From a candidate division FCPU426 bacterium (GTDB taxonomy: Bacteria; Oederibacteriota; JAAXVQ01; JAUVAV01), in contig DAOWGI010000079.1 of assembly GCA_030637655.1 (NCBI GenBank), positions 1 through 16,114 on the forward strand: a stretch of 16,114 bases of DNA. Direction: 5' to 3'. Shown piece by piece: positions 38 to 16,092 of this stretch. How positions within the stretch are numbered: the stretch's first letter is position 1; the number at the start of each line of letters is the position of its first letter. The position numbers and the translations under genes are program-made. The notes beneath the pieces are model-generated. The model ran no database searches, had not been told where the DNA came from, and saw only the letters and a list, made by a program, of their open reading frames with translations.

Positions 38-131
38 GTCATTCCTGCATGTTTTTAGCAGGAATCCAGTGGCTTTGATCTTTAAATGCTTTAAAGTCAC
101 TGGATCCCGGCTTAATGATTGCCGGGATGAC
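38..131. repeat. GTCATT...ATGAC three-hairpin palindromic (REP/RPE-like) element, copy 1
   Basis: Terminal GTCAT(38-42)/ATGAC(127-131). Hairpins: ATTCCTGC(41-48)/GCAGGAAT(58-65); CCAGTGGCTTT(66-76)/AAAGTCACTGG(93-103, one G:U); ATCCCGGC(104-111)/GCCGGGAT(121-128). Same architecture as 5828-5935 and 15948-16057. Confidence 0.85.
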
Positions 132-3676: not shown

Positions 3677-5698
<2,022 letters not shown>

Positions 5699-5766
5699 TT
5701 AAGGTGTTGTGTTAATTCCTAAATAGTTCCTGTTGCGGAAAGCGATTTTCAAGCAATTATGTCATT

Positions 5767-5810
5767 CCCCGACTGGAAAGGAATATTTAATACTGGGACG
5801 TTTTAGGCAG
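5767..5810. repeat. Micro-insert copy A (44 bp)
   Basis: CCCCGACTGGAAAGGAATATTTAATACTGGGACGTTTTAGGCAG lies between GTCATT and CCCGCATGCC. Confidence 0.7.
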
Positions 5811-5833
5811 CCCGCATGCCTTTTTTTGTCATT

Positions 5834-5870
5834 CCCCGACCGGAAAAAATATATAGGGACGCTGGCGCAG
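5834..5870. repeat. Micro-insert copy B (37 bp)
   Basis: CCCCGACCGGAAAAAATATATAGGGACGCTGGCGCAG lies between GTCATT and CCCGAGGG; removing it restores GTCATTCCCGAGGGTTTAATCGGGAATCC. Confidence 0.8.
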
Positions 5871-5997
5871 CCCGAGGGTTTAATCGGGAATCCGGTTTTT
5901 AAACCATATCCCCGATACAAGCGTTCGGGGATGACAAACTAAAAAAACGCTTCACTGACCTGTTACCACCTTTAAGGTATTGTGCTTTTGTTGACAT

Positions 5998-6023
5998 CCG
6001 GTGTATTATACCAGTGTATTATA
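5998..6023 (-). promoter_or_regulatory. Putative extended -10 promoter for ligA within a 13-bp tandem duplication
   Basis: The minus strand reads TATAATACACTGGTATAATACACCGG: two perfect TATAAT hexamers, the second preceded by TGG (TGnTATAAT, 6005-6013). Confidence 0.5.
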
Positions 6024-6103
6024 TATGAAAATTAGAATTGCAATATTAAAAAATTCAGTGTACATATACCTTGCATCTATTTTCTAAAAGGAGACCCGCC
6101 CTT

Positions 6104-6967
6104 ATGTTTAATACCTGCCAAAAATCACTGACTATTTCCTGTCTGCTATTGGCAATGCTTTTTAGCGGTTGTGCCATTACACCGAAAAAGCCGGAACTAA
6201 AAAAAGTGGCCCTGGTCTTAGGCGGAGGCGGCGCCCGGGGTTTTGCCCATGTAGGTGTGATCCGCGAATTGGAAAGCGCCGGCATTCCTATTGATATGAT
6301 CGTGGGTGTGAGCGTGGGCAGTTTAATCGGCGCGTTGTACGCGGATACCAAAGACTCTTTTAAACTGGAATGGAAATCTTTTAAAATCCAGAAAAAGGAG
6401 ATTTTCGACTTCAAAGTATTTAACATCGCCGAAGGACTGGCCAAAGGGGCTGCCATTAAAAAATATATTGATGAAAATATTGAAACCCGGTTTCTTGAGG
6501 ATTTGAAAATTCCTCTGGCTGTAGTAGCTGTGGATATCAATACCGGAGAACCGGTGATCTTCCAAACCGGTCGTATCCGGGACGCGGTCCGGGCCAGTAT
6601 CTCAGTACCCGGTGTATTTGCCCCTGTGATTCACGAAGACAAAATTCTGGTAGACGGCGGTGTGCTGGGTAATTTGGCTCCCCAGGTTGCCCGGGAAATG
6701 GGTGCGGATATTATCATTGGAGTGAATATTGCCAAACCGCGCAGGAGTTTCACCAGTACACCTAATGCCTTAACCGTTATTCTTGAATCCATTGATATTA
6801 TGGGAGGAGAGATCGTCCGTTTAAAAGAACAGGAATTCGATTTTCTGATCCGGCCCGATGTGGGTGATATAGGCATCACGGATTTCACCCGTAAAAAAGA
6901 GCTTATTGAGGCTGGCCGGCAGGCCACCAAGCAAATTCTCTCACAGATTAAACACGCCACCCAGTAA
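6104..6967 (+). CDS. Patatin-like phospholipase (RssA/NTE-like), predicted lipoprotein
   Basis: LVLGGGGARG oxyanion motif, GVSVG nucleophile elbow, AVRASISVPGVF, LVDGG. Lipobox LFSGC; AAAGGAGA RBS before ATG 6104. Confidence 0.93.
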   Translation: MFNTCQKSLTISCLLLAMLFSGCAITPKKPELKKVALVLGGGGARGFAHVGVIRELESAGIPIDMIVGVSVGSLIGALYADTKDSFKLEWKSFKIQKKEIFDFKVFNIAEGLAKGAAIKKYIDENIETRFLEDLKIPLAVVAVDINTGEPVIFQTGRIRDAVRASISVPGVFAPVIHEDKILVDGGVLGNLAPQVAREMGADIIIGVNIAKPRRSFTSTPNALTVILESIDIMGGEIVRLKEQEFDFLIRPDVGDIGITDFTRKKELIEAGRQATKQILSQIKHATQ

Positions 6968-6989
6968 CAGCGTTTTTACCCCTTAATTT

Positions 6990-7850
6990 CTACTTTTGAC
7001 ATTTCGGACACCAGTGCGTGCCCCGCTGCGCCACTACAGCTTTGCGTATTTTCGTGCTACACTTGAAACACCGTTCATCTTTCCTGCCATACACTTGCAA
7101 GTATTTTTGAAATCCTCCGCGTCTGCTCTCCGGATCATAATAATCCGAGAACGTGGTTCCCCGAAAACGGATGCCGGCTTTCAAAACTGCCTGGATCGCA
7201 GCATGCAAAGCGTTGATCTTTTTCTTCGAAACAGCACCGGCCATACGCTGCGGTGCCAAACCGGCTCGAAAGAGCGCCTCGTCAACATAAATATTCCCTA
7301 AGCCTGCGACAACCTTTTGATTCAACAAAGCCGCCTTGAGCCCGGCTTTTTTTCCGCGCAATCCCTGTTGCAAGACTTCAGGAGTAAAGGCTTTTCCCAA
7401 TGGTTCCGGCCCTAAGCGCTGAAAAAACACAGTCTCTTGTTCTGAGGCTAAATAACGCAACCGCCCAAATTTCCGAATATCCCGGAAAAACAATCGCTTT
7501 CCTTTGGACAAGTTCAGTATTAAATGAGTATGCTTATCCGGCAAAGAAGGCCATCCACTGCCAAGCCGTTCACCTTGGCGCGCCACAAACAATTGCCCGG
7601 TCATGCCCAAGTGAAAAACAAGACTTCCTTGGTCCAAGTCAGCGATCAAATACTTCGCACGGCGGCGCAGCCGAATAATAGTACGACCTTGTAGTTGCCG
7701 CACAAACTGTTTGGCTTGGGAGCGAGGATTTTGTGCCCATCGAGAGGCTGCCATTTTGGGAACCCGAAGATCAGCCCTGATAATTTTCAAACCTGTTATT
7801 TTTTTCTCCAGCACTTGCCGGATGGTTTCCACTTCAGGCAATTCAGGCAT
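6990..7850 (-). CDS. mutM: Formamidopyrimidine-DNA glycosylase/AP lyase
   Basis: N-terminal MPELPEVET, RRAKYL, HLGMTG, DIRKFG, GLGNIYVDE (H2TH), C-terminal CFKC...CPKCQ zinc finger. Confidence 0.98.
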   Translation of the reverse strand: MPELPEVETIRQVLEKKITGLKIIRADLRVPKMAASRWAQNPRSQAKQFVRQLQGRTIIRLRRRAKYLIADLDQGSLVFHLGMTGQLFVARQGERLGSGWPSLPDKHTHLILNLSKGKRLFFRDIRKFGRLRYLASEQETVFFQRLGPEPLGKAFTPEVLQQGLRGKKAGLKAALLNQKVVAGLGNIYVDEALFRAGLAPQRMAGAVSKKKINALHAAIQAVLKAGIRFRGTTFSDYYDPESRRGGFQKYLQVYGRKDERCFKCSTKIRKAVVAQRGTHWCPKCQK

Positions 7851-7872
7851 GTTTATTCACCCTTCAATTCCC

Positions 7873-7910
7873 CCGCTTCATCCCCGGCCTTTAGGCCGGG
7901 GAATTCGCGG
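7873..7910. mobile_element. IS200/IS605-end-like GC-rich hairpin (remnant)
   Basis: TCCCCGGCC-TTTA-GGCCGGGGA (7881-7902) preceded by CGCTTCA; resembles, from memory, subterminal hairpins of IS200/IS605 elements. Confidence 0.5.
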
Positions 7911-8447
7911 TGGCATATTAAGCGAGAAGCGGCAACCGCAGTAATTCTGACGGTACAGCTCCAAATCATTGGATATTTGCAAACTGCGTTTAAAACCACC
8001 CTGCTTTTTAAAATCAAGTTCCAGAAACTTCACGCCACAGGTCTGTGCTGCAGTTTGACCTGCCAACATAATCATAGCGGATACTTTGTGCGGCGAAATA
8101 GTTAAGGTAGTGGTAAAAAACGGAAAATCCAATTCTTTTGTCTTGGCTGCTGCGGCTTGGAGATTATAGGTAAAACAAGCAGCGCAGCGCAAGCCACGTT
8201 CCGGTTCGTTTTCCAATCCCTGGACAGCTTGCAGCCATTCTTTAGGCTCATATTCCGGAGCAATCAGAAGAAATCCCAGTGCAGCGGCTGCCTTTTCCGC
8301 TTCTGCCAGGCGTTTCCGATATTCCGAGACCGGATGAATATTGGGATTATGGAAAAAACCTACTACTTCATACTCCGGAGATAAGCGCTCAAAAACTGCA
8401 GTCGCGTCCGGAGCACAACATATGTGGAGCAAAACTCTCTCTTTCAT
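7878..8447 (-). CDS. queH: Epoxyqueuosine reductase QueH (DUF208)
   Basis: LLHICCAPD, NPNIHP, EPERGLRCAACF, FTTTLTISPHK, DFKKQGGF, LYRQNYCGC. Confidence 0.95.
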   Translation of the reverse strand: MKERVLLHICCAPDATAVFERLSPEYEVVGFFHNPNIHPVSEYRKRLAEAEKAAAALGFLLIAPEYEPKEWLQAVQGLENEPERGLRCAACFTYNLQAAAAKTKELDFPFFTTTLTISPHKVSAMIMLAGQTAAQTCGVKFLELDFKKQGGFKRSLQISNDLELYRQNYCGCRFSLNMPPRIPRPKGRG

Positions 8448-8555
8448 GGATACATCTTCCCTTTGTTACTCAAAAGTGTTACAAATTATAGCTGGACTGA
8501 GTAATCATAGGCAAGTAATAAAATAGGGAATGCCTCCCTAAAAAAGGATTCCACA

Positions 8556-10052
8556 GTGCTGATCAAAACCGATCCTGCCATCATTGCCGGATACTTGGAA
8601 GATGCCTCAGGCTATACTGAAGGCTGCGCGACACAGGTGGTCATTCCGGAAACTGAGGCGGAAATCGCCGAATATCTGAACGCTGCCTCCCAGCGCCGGG
8701 AAGCAATCACGATTTCCGGAGGCCGGACCGGCGTGACAGCCGGTTGTGTTCCGCAAAATGGCAGTATTCTTTCCTTGGAACGCTTTGATCAACTGGGTAA
8801 TATTGAAAAAACTCCTGACGGCGGTAGTATCCTGGCTCAATCCGCAGTTCGGTTGGATACCTTGAAAGCAACTGCCCTGGCTGCCCGGCTTTTATACGGA
8901 CCGGATCCCACTGAAAGAACCGGAACCCTGGGCGGCAATGTAGCTACCAATGCCAGCGGAGGACAGTGTTTTAAATACGGGACTACGCGCGAACATGTTT
9001 TAGGGCTCACTATGATCCTGAGCACCGGCGAAAAACTTCGATTGGAGAGAGGGCAATCCCTATGTAAAAATAACATTCTGCGTTTCCCGCTTGATTCCGG
9101 TCGAAATATAGAATGCCAACGGCCGCAGTTACCAACACTTAAGGTTGATAAAAATGCTGCCGGATACTATTCCACACCGGAAATGGATGCTTTGGATCTT
9201 CTTATTGGTATGGATGGCACTTTAGGTGTGATCACGGAAATCAAACTCAAATTGCTGCCGGCTCCTGCCGGAATATTTTCTTTGGTCATCTTTTTCCCCA
9301 CCCAAGCTGCTGCTTTGGAGTGTGCCGGCCAGATCCGCAATTCCAGCCAGGGGAACCAACCAATCGCGGGAATTGCACCCGCTTCCCTGGAATTTATGGA
9401 CATCCATTCCTTGAATTTACTCAAACCGAATTTTTCCACAATTCCAGCTGTTGGCCAGGCTGCCCTGCTCATTGAGCAAGAGCATACGCTAGAGAGTGAA
9501 GGACAGGCCTTAAGCCATTGGTTTGACTATTGTACGGATCTGAACGTCCCGGAAAACCTGATATGGTTTGCGCAGACCGAAAAAGACCGTGAGCGTATAC
9601 GCGCTTTTCGACACGCTCTACCGGAAGTTGTAAACACGATCGTTCGCCAACGAAAATTCAGAAAGGTCGGCACTGATATGGCAGTCCCGGAATCCGAATT
9701 TCCCGGCATGTTCGAAGTGTATGCGCAAGGATTAAATGCTTCCGGTCTGGAGTACTTAATCTTTGGTCATATTGGAGAATGCCATTTGCATGTCAATGTA
9801 CTTCCGAAAACACAAGCTGAATTTGACCAAGCCAAAGCCATGTATCTGAATTTCGCTCAACAAGCTGTCCAACGCGGAGGCACGGTAAGCGCTGAACATG
9901 GCATTGGTAAAATCAAGCATGATTTTTTCCAGCTTATGGTTGGCGCACATGGGTTTCAGGAAATTGCCCGGGTAAAACGCTGTTTTGATCCGGCCCTGAT
10001 CTTAAATCGAAATAATATTTTTCCAGAACACTTTCTAGGAGCCTTAATATGA
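8556..10052 (+). CDS. FAD-linked oxidase / D-2-hydroxyacid dehydrogenase-like (GlcD family)
   Basis: GGRTG, PDPT...TLGGNVATNASG...KYG, LLIGMDGTLGVIT, FGHIGECHLH, SAEHGIGKIK. GTG start after AAGGA. Confidence 0.92.
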   Translation: MLIKTDPAIIAGYLEDASGYTEGCATQVVIPETEAEIAEYLNAASQRREAITISGGRTGVTAGCVPQNGSILSLERFDQLGNIEKTPDGGSILAQSAVRLDTLKATALAARLLYGPDPTERTGTLGGNVATNASGGQCFKYGTTREHVLGLTMILSTGEKLRLERGQSLCKNNILRFPLDSGRNIECQRPQLPTLKVDKNAAGYYSTPEMDALDLLIGMDGTLGVITEIKLKLLPAPAGIFSLVIFFPTQAAALECAGQIRNSSQGNQPIAGIAPASLEFMDIHSLNLLKPNFSTIPAVGQAALLIEQEHTLESEGQALSHWFDYCTDLNVPENLIWFAQTEKDRERIRAFRHALPEVVNTIVRQRKFRKVGTDMAVPESEFPGMFEVYAQGLNASGLEYLIFGHIGECHLHVNVLPKTQAEFDQAKAMYLNFAQQAVQRGGTVSAEHGIGKIKHDFFQLMVGAHGFQEIARVKRCFDPALILNRNNIFPEHFLGALI

Positions 10053-10110
10053 TCCGCAGCTTGTTCCTGCTACAGGTAAAAAAATAATTTAAACATTTAT
10101 CCGGTTTTCT

Positions 10111-10139
10111 TTGACATTCCTTTTCTCATCCCCCACAAT
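10111..10139 (+). promoter_or_regulatory. Putative sigma70 promoter of pncA-pncB
   Basis: TTGACA (10111-10116), 17 bp, CACAAT (10134-10139); AGGAGG RBS at 10155-10160. Confidence 0.6.
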
Positions 10140-10168
10140 ATATGTATTCCCAACAGGAGGAATATTAC

Positions 10169-10753
10169 ATGCCTTTATCCATTACTCCCCATGATGCTCT
10201 GCTGGTGGTTGATATGCAGAATGATTTTATGCCTGGAGGCGCCCTGGGTGTTACCGGTGGTGATGAAATTGTCCCCCTGGTCAATCAACTGCTGGAGCTG
10301 TTTCAGATACGGGTCTTTTCCCGTGACTGGCACCCGGCAAATCACAGTAGTTTTTCCGACAATCCCACTTTCACAGATAATTCCTGGCCGGCCCACTGTG
10401 TGCAGGACACAGCCGGTGCGCAATTTCACCAAGACCTCAAAACCGATTTGGCGGATAAAATCGTGAGCAAAGCCACCACCGTTGAACAAGAAGCCTATTC
10501 TGCTTTCCAAAACACAGACTTGGAAAATTGGCTGCAGCAAAAAGGTATTCAGCGCGTCTTTATTGTCGGCTTAGCTACCGATTATTGTGTTAAATTTTCC
10601 GCCTTGGACGCGCAAGAGATTGGTTTTGATACTTATGTTATTCGCAATGCCACCCGGGGCGTGGATAATCCCCCTGGCAACGAAATCCAACAAGTGCAAA
10701 CCATGGAGAATGCCGGCATTCACATTATCTACAGCAAAAATATTTTCGAATAA
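10169..10753 (+). CDS. pncA: Nicotinamidase/pyrazinamidase
   Basis: VVDMQNDFMPGGAL, DWHP, WPAHCVQDT, YSAF, GLATDYCV. AGGAGG 8 nt before ATG 10169; adjacent to pncB. Confidence 0.95.
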   Translation: MPLSITPHDALLVVDMQNDFMPGGALGVTGGDEIVPLVNQLLELFQIRVFSRDWHPANHSSFSDNPTFTDNSWPAHCVQDTAGAQFHQDLKTDLADKIVSKATTVEQEAYSAFQNTDLENWLQQKGIQRVFIVGLATDYCVKFSALDAQEIGFDTYVIRNATRGVDNPPGNEIQQVQTMENAGIHIIYSKNIFE

Positions 10754-12211
10754 ATGAACCCGAATAATATAATCACCCATTGGATCCGTCGCGAGGGACT
10801 GGCTTTATTAACCGATTTTTATGAACTTACCATGCTATCCGGTTATTTAAAACACGGATTAGCAGAGCAAAATGTCGCTTTTGAATACTTCTTCAGGACT
10901 TTACCCAAGCACAATGGCTTTGTGCTTACTGCCGGACTGGAACAATTCCTTAATTATTTGGAAAACCTCCATTTCAACCAGGATGATATTGCCTACCTGG
11001 AGAGTTTAAAGGTTTTTAATCAAGAAACCCTGGACTATTTGCAAACCTTCCGGCCAAATATCAATGTCTGGGCCATTCCGGAAGGCACACCTGTTTTTCC
11101 ACACGAACCCATTATTCGTCTCACCGGCCCTCTGCCTCATCTACAACTGGTTGAGTCCTTTTTATTGAATGCACTCAACTACCAATCCTTGATTGCCACC
11201 AAAACTGCCCGTATTTGTCTGGCCGCCCAAGGCGACCCGGTCTTGGAATTCGGTCTACGGCGCGCTCAAGGACCGGACGGTAGTCTTATAGGAAGTCGTG
11301 GCGCGTATATTGGAGGAGCTATTGGCACCAGCAATGTACTGGCCGGCAGGATTTTCCAGATCCCTGTCCGTGGCACACATGCGCATTCCTGGGTTATGAG
11401 TTTTGATTCTGAAAAAGAGGCTTTTGAATCCTTTGCCGACACCTTTCCCAAAGGCTGCGTATTATTGGTGGATACCTACAACACACTCCATAGTGGCGTG
11501 CCCCATGCCATTGAGGTTTTTAAAGCCCGGCCGCATTTATCCCCAGCCATCCGTATTGATTCCGGTGATCTGTCCAAACTTTCCAAAGCCGCACACCGTC
11601 AATTTACGCAAGCCAATATGCCGGATGTCCGAATTGTTGGAACCAATGATTTGGACGAGGATCTGATTGCTGATTTAAAACGCCAGGGAGCAAAAATCAA
11701 CACCTGGGCTGTGGGCACCCATCTGATCACATCCAAAGATCATCCGGCTTTGGACGGTGTATACAAACTGGTGGCCCTCGAAAAGGACGGGACCTGGGCC
11801 CCTCGCATCAAGCTTTCTGCCAATCCGGAAAAAGCGACAGATCCGGGGCTCAAGCGGCCTATCCGTTGTTACAACCAGGATCATCAACCTTTAGCCGATA
11901 TTTTAATCACAGATCAGGAATCCCATGCTCAAGGCCCGGGTTCCATTGCCATTGACCGCTTATTTTTGCACCAGAAGCGCAAAGTAAGCAATATCGCGAG
12001 TACTGAAGAACTCCTGGTTCCTGTCTATCAAAATCATAAATACCTAGGCACACCGCCTACCTTGGAGCAAATTCGTCAGCATGCCCGGCAATGTCTGGCT
12101 TGCTTTCCTGAAGAATATTTACGTTTGCGGAATCCTGAAATTTACTGGCTGGGACTGTCGCCGGAACTGGCAAAAATAAAAAAAAGTGTTCTGCGTGATC
12201 TGAATGAATAA
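10754..12211 (+). CDS. pncB: Nicotinate phosphoribosyltransferase
   Basis: LLTDFYELTM, EFGLRRAQ, GTHAHSW, LLVDTY, IRIDSGD, GVYKLV. Starts immediately after the pncA stop (TAAATG). Confidence 0.97.
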   Translation: MNPNNIITHWIRREGLALLTDFYELTMLSGYLKHGLAEQNVAFEYFFRTLPKHNGFVLTAGLEQFLNYLENLHFNQDDIAYLESLKVFNQETLDYLQTFRPNINVWAIPEGTPVFPHEPIIRLTGPLPHLQLVESFLLNALNYQSLIATKTARICLAAQGDPVLEFGLRRAQGPDGSLIGSRGAYIGGAIGTSNVLAGRIFQIPVRGTHAHSWVMSFDSEKEAFESFADTFPKGCVLLVDTYNTLHSGVPHAIEVFKARPHLSPAIRIDSGDLSKLSKAAHRQFTQANMPDVRIVGTNDLDEDLIADLKRQGAKINTWAVGTHLITSKDHPALDGVYKLVALEKDGTWAPRIKLSANPEKATDPGLKRPIRCYNQDHQPLADILITDQESHAQGPGSIAIDRLFLHQKRKVSNIASTEELLVPVYQNHKYLGTPPTLEQIRQHARQCLACFPEEYLRLRNPEIYWLGLSPELAKIKKSVLRDLNE

Positions 12212-12219
12212 AAACTATC

Positions 12220-12320
12220 GCGGAGCTTTCAGGGGGGCCGCAGGTCCCCCTGACGCAAACGCCGATGCGTTTTGCTGGCCCCTCCTATCCGATTCAGGGG
12301 CCCCGCCCCCGAACCCCCGC
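12220..12320. repeat. GC-rich multi-hairpin REP-like inverted doublet
   Basis: TCAGGGGGGCC-GCA-GGTCCCCCTGA (12229-12253), GCAAACGC/GCGTTTTGC (12255-12275), GGCCCCT/AGGGGCC (12277-12302). Both ends read inward as GCGG..TTC.GGGGG...CCCCTGA. Confidence 0.6.
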
Positions 12321-12340
12321 TCTCTATTTTTATAGAGAGC
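12319..12340. terminator. Hairpin between convergent pncB and NYN genes (possible terminator)
   Basis: GCTCTCTAT-TTTT-ATAGAGAGC, a perfect 9-bp stem with no clear U-tract. Confidence 0.35.
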
Positions 12341-12360
12341 CACGGGATACGGGTTTAACC

Positions 12361-12891
12361 TTACCAAAGTCCTTGGGTCTTTCTGTGGTTTTTCGGCGCT
12401 TTACGGGGATTGCCCTTTTTCTTGGTATGCCCCACCCACCCTTTTTCTTCACGTTTTCCGTGCCAATAATCCGTGTTTTTCGGCGTCAGTTTTCCCGGCC
12501 GGCTCCTCCGCAAAAGCTCTTCCGGTGGAGCCACATTAACCCGATACATGCGGCAGGAAACAGCCAAATCACGATCTGCTGTTATGACTAAATATCCACA
12601 ACAATTGGCAGCATCCGAAGCAACCAGGTCCTTAATTACTTCATCGGCAGTTTCTCCTTGCGCCGAATAGATGATATGAATGCCCTCACGCTGAGAACGT
12701 TGACGAAAAGAATTGGGCCCATTGGCGCCATCATATACCACAGTAATACGATTGGTTGTGCCTCGCCTATACTGTGCCAACTTCTGAATTAAAATATTCT
12801 GCGCGCCATAGAAATTAATACTCTCAATCGCTGACAATTCTGAATCCCCGCGGATCACATTAAATCCATCCACAATAACGTGTTTTGGCAC
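12361..12891 (-). CDS. YacP/Rae1-like NYN-domain ribonuclease
   Basis: IVDGFNVI, VVYDG, ETADEVI, VITADRDL (PIN-like acidic residues) and basic tail KKGNPRKAPK. AAGGAG 7 nt before GTG 12891. Confidence 0.88.
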   Translation of the reverse strand: MPKHVIVDGFNVIRGDSELSAIESINFYGAQNILIQKLAQYRRGTTNRITVVYDGANGPNSFRQRSQREGIHIIYSAQGETADEVIKDLVASDAANCCGYLVITADRDLAVSCRMYRVNVAPPEELLRRSRPGKLTPKNTDYWHGKREEKGWVGHTKKKGNPRKAPKNHRKTQGLW

Positions 12892-12920
12892 CACTCCACT
12901 CCTTTAAGTACTTTTTTAAT

Positions 12921-12965
12921 AAAAAAGCCGGAGTCTTGAAAAACAAGAGCTCCGGCTTTCTTTTT
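12921..12965 (-). terminator. Rho-independent terminator, probably bidirectional, after the barrel gene
   Basis: AAAGCCGGAG-TCTTG-AAAAA-CAAGA-G-CTCCGGCTTT with an A-run on the left and a T-rich run on the right. Confidence 0.85.
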
Positions 12966-12974
12966 GGCATTTTT

Positions 12975-13862
12975 TCAAAAGGCAAAACACAAACTCGCGC
13001 CGCCTATGATGCGCCAATCATAACGCGGTGCAGCGGTTGGCCGGTCATCCTGAACTTCCAGCGGGATGGCATATCCGATTTTGGCTTTAAAAATACCTTT
13101 TTTCAGACTGATTCCCGGAATAAAGGTCATGGTATTTCCAGCGCTGTCCTCAAGCACCTGGCCGGCGCTTTTTACTTCTCCGTAGGTACTGCCCAGCAAT
13201 TCAGCGTGAATGGTAAAGATATCGCCGCCAGTGGGCACTTCCACACCCAGACGCCAATGCGTTCCATCTCCGGGTTTAATTTTAACCGGATCATAAATGA
13301 TCTCCCCGGTATTAATATCCACATCGACCGGCTCCTCTTTGTCATACTCTCCCCGGTACTCATATCCAACATTAGCATGCAATTTAGCAAACATAATATC
13401 CATATCCGCTGCCAAGAAAGGATAAAAATCCAGACCCTCGCCCAGGTATTTTTCCGGGTCACCGGTTGGCAAGGTAAAATTTACGCCCAATGCCAAATTA
13501 AAAACCGGCAGTCCCAGGAGACCGGTTTTGAGGCCAATGCCAATATCCCGTATACCACTATAATTTTCTTCCTGCGCAGCCTCAATATTGCTCTTTACTG
13601 AACCGTAGGGAATCGTAATCTTGGCTTCCAATACCGGAAATCCCAGGCGGACAAAGACCGGAATATCATTCACCGTGGATTCCACTGCGGATTGACCCTC
13701 TTCTTCAATTTTCTCATAGGAATAATCAAATTCAGCGCCAATCTCAATACCTGTCATACCGGTCACATTGGCAGCCTGATCAAAAGCAATCGGTTCTGCC
13801 TGCGCCAATAAAGGTGACCCTACCAACATTGCACATACCAGCAAGCTTAATTTCTTCAACAT
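12975..13862 (-). CDS. Outer-membrane beta-barrel transporter, COG4313/MetA-phenol-degradation-like
   Basis: GGAGG 7 nt before ATG 13862; signal peptide (..LLAQA). Motifs ITIPY, SGIRDIGIGLK, LGVNFTLPTGD, HANVGYEY, GYAIPL; terminal Phe. Confidence 0.72.
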   Translation of the reverse strand: MLKKLSLLVCAMLVGSPLLAQAEPIAFDQAANVTGMTGIEIGAEFDYSYEKIEEEGQSAVESTVNDIPVFVRLGFPVLEAKITIPYGSVKSNIEAAQEENYSGIRDIGIGLKTGLLGLPVFNLALGVNFTLPTGDPEKYLGEGLDFYPFLAADMDIMFAKLHANVGYEYRGEYDKEEPVDVDINTGEIIYDPVKIKPGDGTHWRLGVEVPTGGDIFTIHAELLGSTYGEVKSAGQVLEDSAGNTMTFIPGISLKKGIFKAKIGYAIPLEVQDDRPTAAPRYDWRIIGGASLCFAF

Positions 13863-13949
13863 ACTCACACCTCCCGTAGATATTGTATTGTCTTTCGTTC
13901 CAGAGGAGGTTTCTCTTGTCCTCCCCTGGTTTGCAAAGTGCCGGGTTAA

Positions 13950-13978
13950 AGTTTAGCGCGTAGCAGTTTACTAATCAA
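13950..13978 (-). promoter_or_regulatory. Putative sigma70 promoter of the barrel gene
   Basis: Minus strand TTGATT (13978-13973), 17 bp, TAAACT (13955-13950). Confidence 0.55.
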
Positions 13979-14005
13979 GCACAAAACGACTGTATTGAGT
14001 GAATC

Positions 14006-15862
14006 TCAAGACTCCAATGTCACTGTAAACCAGCCGCGCACAGAATTAGACAACCGAATTTCGTCCGCGGTTCCCAGCTCTGCTGAAAATAATGTTTTTT
14101 CTTGTATATTCAGCTTTTTCTGACGTAATAATTTTTGCCGCTCAATACCCGGCAACAATCCGGCAGTCACAGGTGGTGTATACCAGCAGCCTTTCTTTTT
14201 AAGGTACACATTCGTAACGCACCCTTCGGTCACGGCACCCTTTTCATTAGTGAATAACACATCAACAAATCCACGTTTTTGCGCTCTGGAATATTCCGCA
14301 TTGTACAATTCACGATTACTGGTTTTATGATACAAAAATATATTTCTCGATTGCGTCTGAAAACGGGAAAATTGTATTTTGCGTGTTTTGCCCGCCGCTT
14401 GCTTTATCACCGGAAAGACTTCAACACGGCAGGTTCCCGCGGCAAACAACAAAAGTCTAATTCGCATGGTTTGTTTGTTTTCCTTAAAAACCCGCTGCGC
14501 TTTTTCCAATTTCGTCAAAATGGATTTGCGCTTCCAGGGAATTTTAAAAAACTGGGCTGAGACACGTAGTCTATGCAAGTGTTGTTTAAGATCCGCATAT
14601 CCGGCTGCTGTATCCCAGCGCATGGTTTCAATCAAATGGTAATCACGCTCTAACAGGCGAACAAAACGCGCTTTGACATGACTCTCTTCCCACTCCGAAG
14701 ATGCTTCGGAATCAGCCACTATCCCACTACCAATACCCACACGCACATCACACGTGCGAGGATTGATTTCCAAGGTTCGGATAGGCACATTGAACACAGC
14801 TTTTTTTTGTGGTGTGATAAAACCAAAGGCGCCGGTATAAACACCACGATTGTGCTTTTCCAGTTCAGCTATGATTTGCATGGTTCGGATTTTCGGAGCT
14901 CCGGTTACTGAACCGCAAGGATAGATATTTTTAAATACCTCCAACCAGGTATTCCGCTTCTGCAATTTCCCGGTTACGGTGGAAGTCATTTGATAAACCG
15001 TGCTATAGTTTTCGATATGAAATAAGTCCGTGGTCAAAATAGAGCCGGTTTCACAGATGCGTCCCAGATCATTTCGCAAAAGATCAACAATCATCACATT
15101 TTCCGCGCGATTTTTCTTAGAATGCAGTAACTGCTCGCGAATTTTTACATCACGCGCTTCATTCCCTGTTCTGGCTGCAGTTCCCTTCATGGGCTTCGTC
15201 TGTAGTTGCCGGCCGTGGCGTTGAAAAAAAAGTTCCGGCGAAAGCGAAAGAATGGTTTTATTGCCGCCCCGCAGCATCCCGGCATAGCCCACCGGTTGGA
15301 TTTTATACAAATCCAGAAACAAGGCGCCGGCATTCCCGACCAGGCGACTGCGCAGTGGAAACGTATAATTGACCTGATACGTATCCCCGGCTGTGATATA
15401 TTTCTTTATTTTTTTAATTTGCGTTTGGTAGGCGGCAAATGTGATTTCAGATTCAGCCGGCGCCAACCAATATTCCGGCCGGCGTGACCTGACCGATTGG
15501 GCCAGCACGGTTTTTAGTTGGTTCTGAGTAATTTTTCGGCTGGGCGCAAAAACCCCAAGCCAGGCCAATGGTGGTTGAATGGCTTGCGGTGATTTGCCTA
15601 TATTTTCAAAAGCATAGCCTAATTCATAGGTGAAATAGCCGGCCAGCGAATATCCCTGATCCAGGGCTTTTTCCAGGGCTTTAAAAAAACGGGGAATATC
15701 AGCAGCCTGCAGGCATTCCAGTTCACCTTGCAGGTCTGAAAATAACAGACCTGCCTGATAGTGCGTACGCGAAGCATTGGGAGAAAACAAAAAGCAAGCA
15801 CCAGTATCAGTGCCATGCAAAAAGTGTTCCCAGGATGTAGCGGCTGCAAAAGAGGTGGGCAA
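14006..15862 (-). CDS. pabB: Aminodeoxychorismate synthase component I fused to a class-IV aminotransferase/ADC-lyase-like domain; start uncertain
   Basis: GDTYQVNYT, SPELFF, KPMKGT, AENVMIVDLLRNDL, PCGSVTGAPK, FNVPIRT, GSGIVADS; then LIETMR, HLHRL, YHKT, TEGCVTNV, GLLPGIER, NSVRG. TTG at 15862 follows AAGGGGG. Confidence 0.93.
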   Translation of the reverse strand: MPTSFAAATSWEHFLHGTDTGACFLFSPNASRTHYQAGLLFSDLQGELECLQAADIPRFFKALEKALDQGYSLAGYFTYELGYAFENIGKSPQAIQPPLAWLGVFAPSRKITQNQLKTVLAQSVRSRRPEYWLAPAESEITFAAYQTQIKKIKKYITAGDTYQVNYTFPLRSRLVGNAGALFLDLYKIQPVGYAGMLRGGNKTILSLSPELFFQRHGRQLQTKPMKGTAARTGNEARDVKIREQLLHSKKNRAENVMIVDLLRNDLGRICETGSILTTDLFHIENYSTVYQMTSTVTGKLQKRNTWLEVFKNIYPCGSVTGAPKIRTMQIIAELEKHNRGVYTGAFGFITPQKKAVFNVPIRTLEINPRTCDVRVGIGSGIVADSEASSEWEESHVKARFVRLLERDYHLIETMRWDTAAGYADLKQHLHRLRVSAQFFKIPWKRKSILTKLEKAQRVFKENKQTMRIRLLLFAAGTCRVEVFPVIKQAAGKTRKIQFSRFQTQSRNIFLYHKTSNRELYNAEYSRAQKRGFVDVLFTNEKGAVTEGCVTNVYLKKKGCWYTPPVTAGLLPGIERQKLLRQKKLNIQEKTLFSAELGTADEIRLSNSVRGWFTVTLES

Positions 15863-15916
15863 GCCAACCCCCTTAAAAATGATGAAACCTCCCAAAATAC
15901 GGGAGGAATAAACAGA

Positions 15917-16092
15917 GTAACATGTCAGTCATGCGATTTTTTTGTTTGTCATTCCCGAGGGTTTAATCGGCCCCGACCGGTAAAGATATATAGGGACGCC
16001 TTCGGCAGGAATCTGGTTTTTTAAACCGTATCCCCGATACAAGCATTCGGGGATGACAAGCTTTGTTTAACCGCAGTTCACTGACATGTTAC
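15917..16092. mobile_element. 176-bp MITE with 13-bp perfect TIRs and 8-bp target-site duplication (IS66-like ends)
   Basis: GTAACATGTCAGT (15917-15929) and ACTGACATGTTAC (16080-16092), flanked by TAAACAGA at 15909-15916 and 16093-16100. Contains palindrome 15948-16057. Confidence 0.9.
15971..16008. repeat. Micro-insert copy C (38 bp)
   Basis: CCCCGACCGGTAAAGATATATAGGGACGCCTTCGGCAG lies between AATCGG and GAATC; removing it restores GTCATTCCCGAGGGTTTAATCGGGAATC. Confidence 0.8.

Follow-up and report, generated by a model that had tools for sequence, protein, structure and literature searches.

The window analysed here is the whole 16,114-nt contig DAOWGI010000079.1 (contig C9 below) of a candidate division FCPU426 bacterium, whose genome, designated as G000, comprises 3.28 Mb in 120 contigs with 45% G+C. 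The genes in the window are ordinary housekeeping genes, encoding an NAD-dependent DNA ligase, a patatin-like protein, Fpg, QueH, nicotinate phosphoribosyltransferase, and a chorismate-binding/aminotransferase fusion protein, and no transposase was found among them. The window also contains three copies (A, B, and C) of a short gene-less repeat, designated as the module, and the hairpin-forming elements that serve as its hosts (Table 1). All module copies examined in the window are intergenic.

Table 1. Modules, host elements, and a further repeat in the window.
Feature	Position	Strand	Description
Module A	5767-5810	+	CCCCGACTGGAAAGGAATATTTAATACTGGGACGTTTTAGGCAG; 44 bp, class I, long A/T core, tail GTTTTAGGCAG
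Module B	5834-5870	+	CCCCGACCGGAAAAAATATATAGGGACGCTGGCGCAG; 37 bp, class I, left-arm site GTCATT^CCCGAG
Module C	15971-16008	+	CCCCGACCGGTAAAGATATATAGGGACGCCTTCGGCAG; 38 bp, class I, right-arm site TCGG^GAATC
GTCATT tag left of module A	5761-5766	+	start of truncated host hairpin
Host element of B	5828-5935	+	H1 GTCATT + CCCGAGGGTTTAATCGGGAATC (5828-5833, 5871-5892); H2 ATCCCCGATACAAGCGTTCGGGGATGAC (5908-5935)
Host element of C	15948-16057	+	H1 15948-15970 and 16009-16013; H2 16030-16057
Insert-free element, second host family	38-131	+	GTCATTCCTGCATGTTTTTAGCAGGAATCC ... CCGGGATGAC
123-bp G+C-rich repeat	12219-12341		8 genome copies, 97-98% identity

Modules in the window

The three modules have the same orientation. 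The pattern CCCCGACYGG-N8-30-GGGACG matches the window three times, with a mean of 0.00 matches in 200 dinucleotide-preserving shuffles. Module B is bounded by GTCATT (5828-5833) on the left and CCCGAGGG on the right, and module C by ...TTTAATCGG (to 15970) on the left and GAATC (16009-16013) on the right. Excision of either module in silico yields the same hairpin, GTCATTCCCGAGGGTTTAATCGGGAATC, which is the most frequent insert-free hairpin in the genome (35 of 66 regular-expression matches). In the stem ATTCCCGA/TCGGGAAT, the sites ATT^CCCG and TCGG^GAAT are 1 nt short of lying opposite each other. Because the base before the module and the last base of the module are both G at the right-arm site, that boundary can also be read 1 nt leftward. 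Neither a target duplication nor a terminal inverted repeat accompanies A, B, or C. All of this agrees with a preliminary description of the window, which had reported the positions and common orientation of the modules, the identical hairpin left by deleting B or C, the two nearly opposed sites, and the lack of duplications and inverted ends. A module identical to B occupies the same site on contig C85.

Module A is different in its surroundings. It had been placed in a host resembling the insert-free copy at 38-131, which starts with GTCATTCCTGCATG. The GTCATT tag and the start of the insert-free copy are as described, but just 10 bases of the host hairpin, CCCGCATGCC (5811-5820), follow module A before a T-run and the next element. 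The composite of an A-type module with CCCRCAKGCC and a T-run recurs in two further full or partial copies on other contigs, and such contigs also carry two A-type 3' parts that lack the 5' box. Because of the short hairpin remnant and the recurring composite, A is weaker evidence of independent insertion than B and C. In a DNA fold, the 3' end of module A, AGGCA (5805-5809), pairs with TGCCT (5817-5821) before the T-run to make a terminator-like hairpin. The second host family, the type of 38-131, has right-arm-filled members on contigs C41, C62, C108, and C30.

The module family and its hosts in the genome

The modules are repeats of 36-50 bp. One unit consists of the 5' box CCCCGACCGG, an A/T-rich core of 12-24 bases, GGGAC/T, and a short G+C tail. 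The boxes CCCCGACCGG and GGGAC are conserved, and the core is variable. Two classes are distinguished by the tail, which in class I is a probable mini-hairpin of 2-3 bp followed by CAG and in class II is TYCCTTCGGTY. In class II, CCCC is followed by GACCGGA, complementary to TTCGGTC over 7 bp with one G-T pair, whereas class I has only CCGA/TCGG. The genome contains about 90-100 modules in total. A strict pattern detected 52 and relaxed patterns 71-89, while a broader scan gave 111 candidates, composed of 72 class I, 18 class II, and 21 unclassified sequences that include some chance matches in coding DNA. Around 35 right-arm copies are nearly identical, which points to recent copying. Doublets and triplets are arranged head-to-tail, and on contigs C8, C45, C1, and C11 unlike variants stand in tandem at one site, which fits successive insertions and does not fit slippage of one unit. 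The genome-wide scans bear out that the module is a discrete and independent entity with constant ends, not a variant part of the host palindromes.

The conserved boxes around a variable core and the intergenic position of the window copies are also compatible with a functional site kept by selection, such as the binding site of a regulatory or nucleoid protein or a part of a promoter or terminator. No preference of orientation relative to genes was seen, however, as class I modules are co-directional with both neighbours (+M+) in 24 cases and anti-directional (-M-) in 21. The recent copying of the right-arm modules and the weakening of the host hairpin by the insertion also disagree with this explanation, and a Rfam scan of window positions 5690-6070 gave no match near the gathering score. 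Selection for such a function is regarded as very improbable. When the A/T core was inspected by eye as a promoter, no consistent -35/-10 geometry was recognized, and this candidate was rejected.

The main host is an element of about 108 bp with two hairpins, H1 (GTCATT-CCCGA...TCGG-GAATC) and H2 (ATCCCCGA...TCGGGGATGAC). H1 is a GTC-tagged stem-loop as in the SRM pattern, while the module itself has neither the tag nor the stem. The hairpin pattern GTCATYCCCG-N6-14-CGGGRATS has 59 matches in the genome, against 18 for the reversed control. Among 93 complete H1...H2 hosts, 52 are empty. The commonest filled configuration, with one module at the right-arm site TCGG^GAATC, accounts for 30 hosts; one module is at the left-arm site GTCATT^CCC in three, and two modules are at that site in one. 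Both sites are filled in two hosts, a further host has two left modules and one right module (both-site filling is seen on C43, C72, and C45), and in four hosts the hairpin tip is replaced by one or two modules (C83, C119, C1, and C11). Since left, right, both-site, and tip-replaced hosts all occur, B and C are not related by one local duplication or deletion. The preliminary description had named three findings that would speak against its proposal, namely a lack of empty-site counterparts, boundaries varying between copies, and a single local event linking B and C; for B and C, empty sites are plentiful, the boundaries are constant, and no such event accounts for the positions.

Each major variant of the hairpin tip is found in both states, with empty and filled counts of 33 and 16 for GAGGG, 5 and 7 for GAACGG, and 6 and 1 for GCATGG. 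A maximum-likelihood tree was built from the host parts after the modules had been taken out; it is poorly resolved because of the short alignment (112 columns). On this tree, the right-arm-filled state requires 25 changes, compared with a mean of 25.6 after shuffling, and is not clustered. At least 10 changes are required by the strongly supported branches alone, and filled and empty copies are mixed in each of the two deep host clades. This scatter excludes a single insertion followed by amplification of the composite. The same module variant occupies the same site of the GAATCTGG... and GAATCCAG... host families, which share just the 28-bp hairpin. In a third host, CGTCATT^...^CCGGCATTTCG..., a 36-bp module variant is present in six copies.

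When contigs from four assemblies of cold-seep metagenomes were aligned to the window, they broke at the repeats. One contig of assembly X2 skips exactly 38 bases (15969 to 16008), but it may derive from any of about 50 empty paralogues because its shorter side is only 24 bases. One contig of assembly X4, with a depth of 3.2, joins 5741 to 5871. Among the metagenome contigs over the window, none was assignable to the locus, and they say nothing on polymorphism.

Hairpins outside the SRM type are hosts as well. Class II modules are lodged in the apical loops of GTAG "double-foot" repetitive extragenic palindromic (REP) sequences, of which at least four stem types serve as hosts. The arrangement does not vary, with the left arm stopping precisely at the first C of the module and the right arm resuming 13 nt past GGGAY. 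The stem GGGAACGGTC has 19 filled copies and 96 empty matches over both strands (about 48 loci), GGGGCACAGC has 2 filled copies and 26 matches (about 13 loci), GGGCGGGTT has 4 filled copies, and GGGCGCACT has 1 filled copy and 60 matches (about 30 loci). In the stems GGGAACGGTC and GGGGCACAGC, removal of CCCC...TTCGGTY restores a REP with a GC or AT loop. A flanking perfect inverted repeat of at least 8 nt was present at 22 of 49 non-SRM matches, which include some chance matches and a few misfiled SRM copies, and at 18 of 2000 random positions.

Two module-bearing hairpins (C82:13023 and C84:3007) are apparently single-copy, as judged without a dedicated search. The former host is a terminator-like stem after a gene, CCACGGGCA/TGCCCGTGG, and the latter is CCCCCTTC/GAAGGGGG. 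Nesting reaches three levels on C64 near 43775 (+) and C30 near 6198 (-), where a complete GTAG REP, GTAGGGAACGGTCGCGACCGTTCCCTAC, lies within the A/T core of a module that itself sits in the loop of the same kind of REP. Another GTAG REP, GTAGAGACGCGAT..ATCGCGTCTCT, is associated with a RAYT-like Y1 gene on C60:1-1100; it lies inside the reading frame and also forms a tandem array with a period of about 97 bp upstream of the gene.

Relatives and the tRNA-Pro genes

Among 99 species genomes of the phylum, the module is confined to the family of the window's genome. Pattern matches number 60 in G000, 84 in G005, 49 in G008, 19 in G003, 4 in G006, and 3 each in G002 and G009. Four genomes of another family have single matches, and the one inspected (G056) is not a module. 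The SRM-type host hairpins have a different range, with 92 in G001, 59 in G000, 22 in G003, 10 in G007, and 6 each in G010 and G002, and with a pattern count of zero in G005, G008, G004, and G009. Thus, G005 and G008 have modules without host hairpins, and G001 has 92 hairpins without modules. The different ranges indicate that module and host are separate families meeting in G000, and the survey of relatives bears out the independence of the two ranges. As in G000, a GGGAACGGTC REP of G002 has a class II module in its loop.

In the genus g6, represented by G005 and G008, the units are 42-45 bp long and form intergenic head-to-tail arrays of up to 21 copies. The cores are uniform inside one array and different between arrays. 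In G005, the arrays open with an incomplete 3' part and frequently close with an incomplete 5' part. The preliminary description had proposed specific insertion into palindromes; this holds for SRM stems, REP loops, and other hairpins, but it is too narrow, as the g6 arrays lie outside palindromes and also adjoin tRNA-Pro genes. Two other readings were considered and rejected. The 19 kb between two large arrays of G005 encodes FtsK, LolA, RodZ, pyruvate kinase, and similar proteins, and is not a genomic island. A CRISPR array was dismissed because the cores are identical or nearly so within an array, and no Rfam match was above the threshold in window positions 5690-6070.

Wider collections were also searched. 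A permissive pattern scan of genome contigs returned 116 stretches, nearly all from high-GC genomes, and true units were confined to two of them (L014 and L056). A tandem-junction pattern returned at least 120 stretches from metagenome contigs, and among the matches listed none had a true unit with an A/T core. The same kind of tandem pattern had no match in viral contigs, and a search of metagenome contigs with ligA found no relative.

When the 5' box CCCCGACCGG is compared with the nine final bases of tRNA-Pro and the base after them (CCCCGACCA+G), 9 of 10 positions agree. In G000, this level of match is found in 3 of 39 tRNAs, all of which are tRNA-Pro, and the best of the other 36 reaches 7 of 10. 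The tRNA-Pro genes end in CCCCGACCA in all 11 genomes of the family. In G005, each of the three tRNA-Pro genes runs directly into a module array in phase, so that the tRNA end is the first 5' box. For tRNA-Pro(GGG), the sequence of G005 is collinear with that of G008 as far as the tRNA end, with 81% identity over 1493 bp. In G005, a 338-bp array follows, then a second CCCCGACCAGT and sequence matching the G008 trailer. The orthologous G008 site is empty, with the trailer directly after the gene. Neither an integrase nor cargo was found between the two CCCCGACCAGT copies in G005, where only module units lie. The locus thus bears the mark of an insertion that entered the tRNA 3' end and restored the gene.

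This link raises the possibility that the module is a satellite derived from tRNA-Pro, having begun as the tRNA 3' end with its trailer or as a collapsed tRNA-Pro copy, in which case the arrays would be primary and the palindrome copies of G000 secondary captures. The 9/10 box match and the in-phase arrays at 3/3 tRNA-Pro genes of G005 are in favour of it, and tandem GGGACGC...GCAG+CCCCGACC forms a helix like an acceptor stem. In this family, the trailers of tRNAs also contain small G+C hairpins that resemble the module tail and have TTC(G) loops, for example ...CGCTTCGCA... after tRNA-Pro(CGG) of G000 and ...CCTTCGGCAAG after a tRNA-Pro of G009, and modules of G003 and G009 lie in a repeat resembling the sequence after many tRNA genes. 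The likeness of the tail to tRNA parts, however, concerns short motifs judged by eye. Arrays at tRNA-Pro are present only in G005 and absent in the other family genomes, that is, G008, G000, and eight others; for this reason the link may be a recent capture through the 10 bases in common, not the origin. The satellite also accounts for the origin and not for the spread to about 100 sites. It is considered an improbable explanation.

Several other repeats were observed around tRNA genes. In G000, a small hairpin comes after many of the tRNA genes, and behind it lies a common stretch of about 70 nt, ...CAGAGCAGGTGAGCAG..GAACAG..GCGAACCTGCGGTC...; modules of G003 and G009 (L331 and L333) lie between GACCG and CAG in the repeat that resembles this stretch. 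At L154, L156, L157, L159, and L167 (G007, G001, G003, G009, and G006, respectively), a second T-arm and acceptor 3' end is seen about 150-190 bp downstream of tRNA-Pro. This second tRNA-Pro-like end (GGTTCAAxTCCTCTCGCCCCGACCA) follows a G+C-rich and hairpin-rich stretch, with no 5' half in view, and is possibly a small element that integrated there, or else an unusual tRNA-like gene. Downstream of tRNA-Pro(GGG) at C31:4467-4700 (L152), there is a tandem repeat of about 52 bp, ATTTTTCGYCCAACGCGAAGGATCTGCATCCCCACGCGCTTGACCAA, which is unrelated to the module.

How the module may be placed

The favoured explanation, with a probability of about 0.55, is an enzyme-mediated and structure-directed placement, accompanied by gene conversion and slippage. 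The module would amplify head-to-tail, as the doublets and triplets of G000 and the arrays of up to 21 units in g6 suggest. It would be placed with exact ends and without target duplication into fold-back DNA, at the two flanks of the SRM/NTS-like hairpin tip, the apical loop of GTAG REPs, terminator-like hairpins, and the 3' ends of the tRNA-Pro genes of G005, where the 5' box of the module would restore the gene. Placement would act on a folded single strand of the target, and it would be performed in trans by a single-strand DNA nuclease/ligase encoded elsewhere. Within a host family, a module inside one copy would also spread to sister copies through gene conversion. The candidate enzymes in G000 are Y1 (HUH) proteins encoded on C82 and C87, and small Ssn-like GIY-YIG proteins encoded on C86, C82, and C11.

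The polarity of the module is consistent with this explanation. Read on the top strand, the left-arm site is ATT^CCCGA; read on the bottom strand, the right-arm site is ATTC^CCGA. The two are mirror-image half-sites, and the absolute polarity of the module is unchanged between them. Orientation is therefore not dictated by the local sequence but by the asymmetric host or by one of its strands, which fits action on a folded single strand.

The module could alternatively be part of a mosaic repeat that arose without transposition, where slippage generated the arrays, illegitimate or unequal recombination the founding junctions, and gene conversion the filled sister copies. The host copies share about 50 bp to the left and 80 bp to the right of the sites, which is enough for conversion, and the partial ends of the G005 arrays resemble those of decaying tandem repeats. 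The sequence flanking several of the junctions resembles the other end of the module, being CCCGA for the left-arm site, CCGG for C82, C93, and host X, and CCCCGACCA for the tRNA. The lack of strand bias and of a linked enzyme, and the G008 subfamily that always lies within a longer repeat, are also what such a mosaic would show. On the other hand, the commonest junction, TCGG^CCCC...GCAG^GAATC, allows an overlap of only 1 nt, so microhomology is no explanation there. The occurrence of one variant at one site in the two families with just a 28-bp hairpin in common, the modules in at least four unrelated REP stems and in apparently single-copy hairpins, and the tandems of unlike variants are also difficult for the mosaic, and it is viewed as a somewhat unlikely account. 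A related candidate, template switching at microhomology, was examined by hand; it fits the left-arm and tRNA junctions but gives the wrong position of CAG at the right-arm junction, and was rejected.

Several observations weigh against enzyme-mediated placement. Gene conversion within one host family could produce the same exact, duplication-free, and co-oriented pattern, although it cannot easily explain the founding junctions in hosts with little or no common homology, the right-arm overlap of at most 1 nt, or the tandems of unlike variants. The contrast between empty and filled sites in G000 is one between paralogues, not an orthologous pair, since the collection includes no genome of the same genus. 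One module subfamily of G008 is a fixed part of a longer repeat, filled in 6 of 6 copies with no empty form. Filled hairpins, as DNA folds, are no better than shuffled sequences (z from -0.06 to +1.5). The class I tail shows a 2-3 bp G+C stem with loops of TNC or TNNC (GNA or GNNA on the other strand) across variants, and it is likely, though not proven, that this hairpin exists; a single doubly compensated stem type, GTC/GAC, was seen, and the common variant GCATTCGGC has a mismatch in the hairpin. The left flanks of modules end in CATT, TCGG, GCGG, REP stem ends, GCAG, or GAAG, and no conserved target oligonucleotide was found in them. The ratio of G-rich to C-rich strands is 36:33 for class I and 13:5 for class II (p = 0.10), and the comparison of filled with empty hosts, 17:21 and 16:29, gave p = 0.50 in the Fisher test. 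This lack of replication-strand bias argues against a preference for the lagging-strand template like that of IS608. Finally, each of the five genomes tested possesses Y1_Tnp and GIY-YIG genes, even the two classed as module-free (G001 and G006), and modules regularly flanking these genes were not found.

The preliminary description had considered an HUH (RAYT/TnpA-Y1) type of mechanism. This proposal is not upheld: Y1 genes occur alike with and without modules, none is flanked by modules, and there is no strand bias. Its wider proposal of structure-targeted insertions survives in that the insertions are independent, hairpin-associated, and free of target duplications; the mechanism does not follow from this, as gene conversion within a host family is possible. 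The Y1 protein of C82 has 340 aa and a DnaA_C-like helix-turn-helix, and that of C87 has 227 aa. Their genes are not flanked by modules, and one degenerate module-like stretch is seen about 340 bp upstream of the C87 gene. The RAYT gene of C60 is flanked by the different GTAG REP, not by the module. GGGACG-containing direct repeats lie upstream of the C82 gene, and relatives of its protein belong to multicopy elements in G005 with inverted ends containing GGGGAC. The ends of these elements and the flanks of the Y1 genes in G000 are not module ends, though they contain GGGGAC or GGGACG, and this GGGAC-type motif is too short to count as evidence. Two further candidates were rejected. The largest arrays are those of G005 (98% complete) and G008, and as neither genome was found to encode RVT_1, the candidate of cDNA primed by tRNA-Pro was dropped. 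A GIY-YIG gene near a module of G008 is separated from it by about 380 bp and another small open reading frame, so there is no regular link.

A more specific version of enzyme-mediated placement would be a gene-less, single-strand micro-transposon of 36-50 nt. Its left end would mimic the 3' acceptor end of tRNA-Pro, and a trans-acting enzyme would cut CAG^CCCC and join the piece into extruded hairpins of the SRM-stem, REP-loop, and terminator kinds, into its own 5' box to give arrays, and into tRNA-Pro genes, which would be restored. This version is thought to be unlikely.

Gene-less derivatives of IS200/IS605 elements are known and are about ten times longer than the module. They resemble the module in having no target duplication, no terminal inverted repeat, a fixed polarity, and a link to hairpin-forming single-stranded DNA (in part from the consulted sections of PMC11893778). 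The module differs in having no pair of subterminal hairpins of the kind that TnpA recognizes, no fixed tetra- or pentanucleotide target, and no replication-strand bias. Integrative elements at tRNA 3' ends are similar to the G005 locus in that an identity block restores the gene and the original end is displaced to the far side. Unlike these elements, the insert consists of units of 42-45 bp with no integrase or cargo, and most copies are away from tRNA genes. REP/RAYT systems, whose repeats are imperfect palindromes of 20-40 bp with a conserved tetranucleotide at the head, differ as well, since no RAYT gene is flanked by the module. BIME of E. coli, NIME of Neisseria, and BOX of pneumococcus are likewise short modules combined with palindromic units, in fixed order and orientation and with variable tandem number. 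To our knowledge, their modules do not occur alone as long arrays, inside hairpin stems or loops, or with a mimic of a tRNA end. Although the order is fixed in the G000 hosts, the present module is found in G005 and G008 without host hairpins.

The NTS/SRM hairpin CGTCATTCCCGCGMAVGCGGGAATCYRG is bound by Ssn single-strand nucleases; according to the parts of PMC11893778 that were available, in the SRM consensus a stem of 8-9 bp with a short loop comes after an (H)GTC(W)(Y) tag, and SsnA cuts about 3 nt upstream of NTS. The main host hairpin GTCATTCCCG-N-CGGGAATC resembles CGTCATTCCCGCGMAVGCGGGAATCYRG, and small GIY-YIG genes are present in G000. The module differs from that system, as far as those parts describe it, in lying outside the SRM pattern and in using two stem positions as its sites, not the cut position of SsnA. 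REPs inserted within palindromes and REPs with long complex loops were described by Di Nocera, De Gregorio and Rocco (2013, PMC3733652), who also mention NIME-like mosaics. In the available portion of that paper, the REPs are small gene-less repeats inside palindromes, some with large structured loops. Of the hairpin families treated there, both the GTAG-tagged and the CGTC-tagged kinds are present in G000, and H1 belongs to the CGTC-tagged repeats. Unlike the REPs in that portion, the present module sits in both CGTC/SRM stems and GTAG loops, forms palindrome-free arrays, and carries the tRNA-Pro box.

Text searches of the literature found no description of the module; their scope did not extend to the supplements of the two REP and Ssn papers, which may list variants. 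Nested and mosaic small repeats are already known. With respect to the parts of the literature consulted, what is new is a module of about 40 bp that is common to CGTC/SRM stems and GTAG REP loops, stands alone as long arrays, carries a tRNA-Pro box, and forms in-phase arrays at tRNA-Pro genes. [quoted passage not shown] If a dedicated enzyme exists, it would recognize folded single-stranded DNA and join a 40-nt piece without duplication, and it would be of interest for single-strand DNA tools, as Ssn nucleases are. If there is no enzyme, the module would show how far recombination alone can go in building "Russian-doll" repeats. In the case of a micro-transposon, no smaller transposable unit would have been described in bacteria, and the module would parasitize other selfish hairpin repeats. 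As the module disrupts its host hairpins, it may also modulate their roles.

Some other repeats were observed near the Y1 genes. The Y1 and helix-turn-helix genes of G005 (L188-L194) are in multicopy elements of about 1.1-2.0 kb with 98-99.7% identity, and their inverted ends, for example CGATTAGGGGACATGTCTAAC...GTTAGACATGTCCCCTAATC, are unusual for IS200-like elements. The motif AAAAAAGTGGCTGGCACC(A/T)GTTC has nine sites in G000 (C87:12353, C49, C80, C81, C109, and C11 among them); two copies are upstream of the C87 Y1 gene, and one is directly before a 5'-truncated A-type module on C11. One copy of the 123-bp repeat of the window (C82:8658-8780) adjoins the 3' end of the Y1+DnaA_C transposase gene, and the repeat is possibly one end of that element or a derivative of it without genes. 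Public metagenome contigs pile up on the copy in the window.

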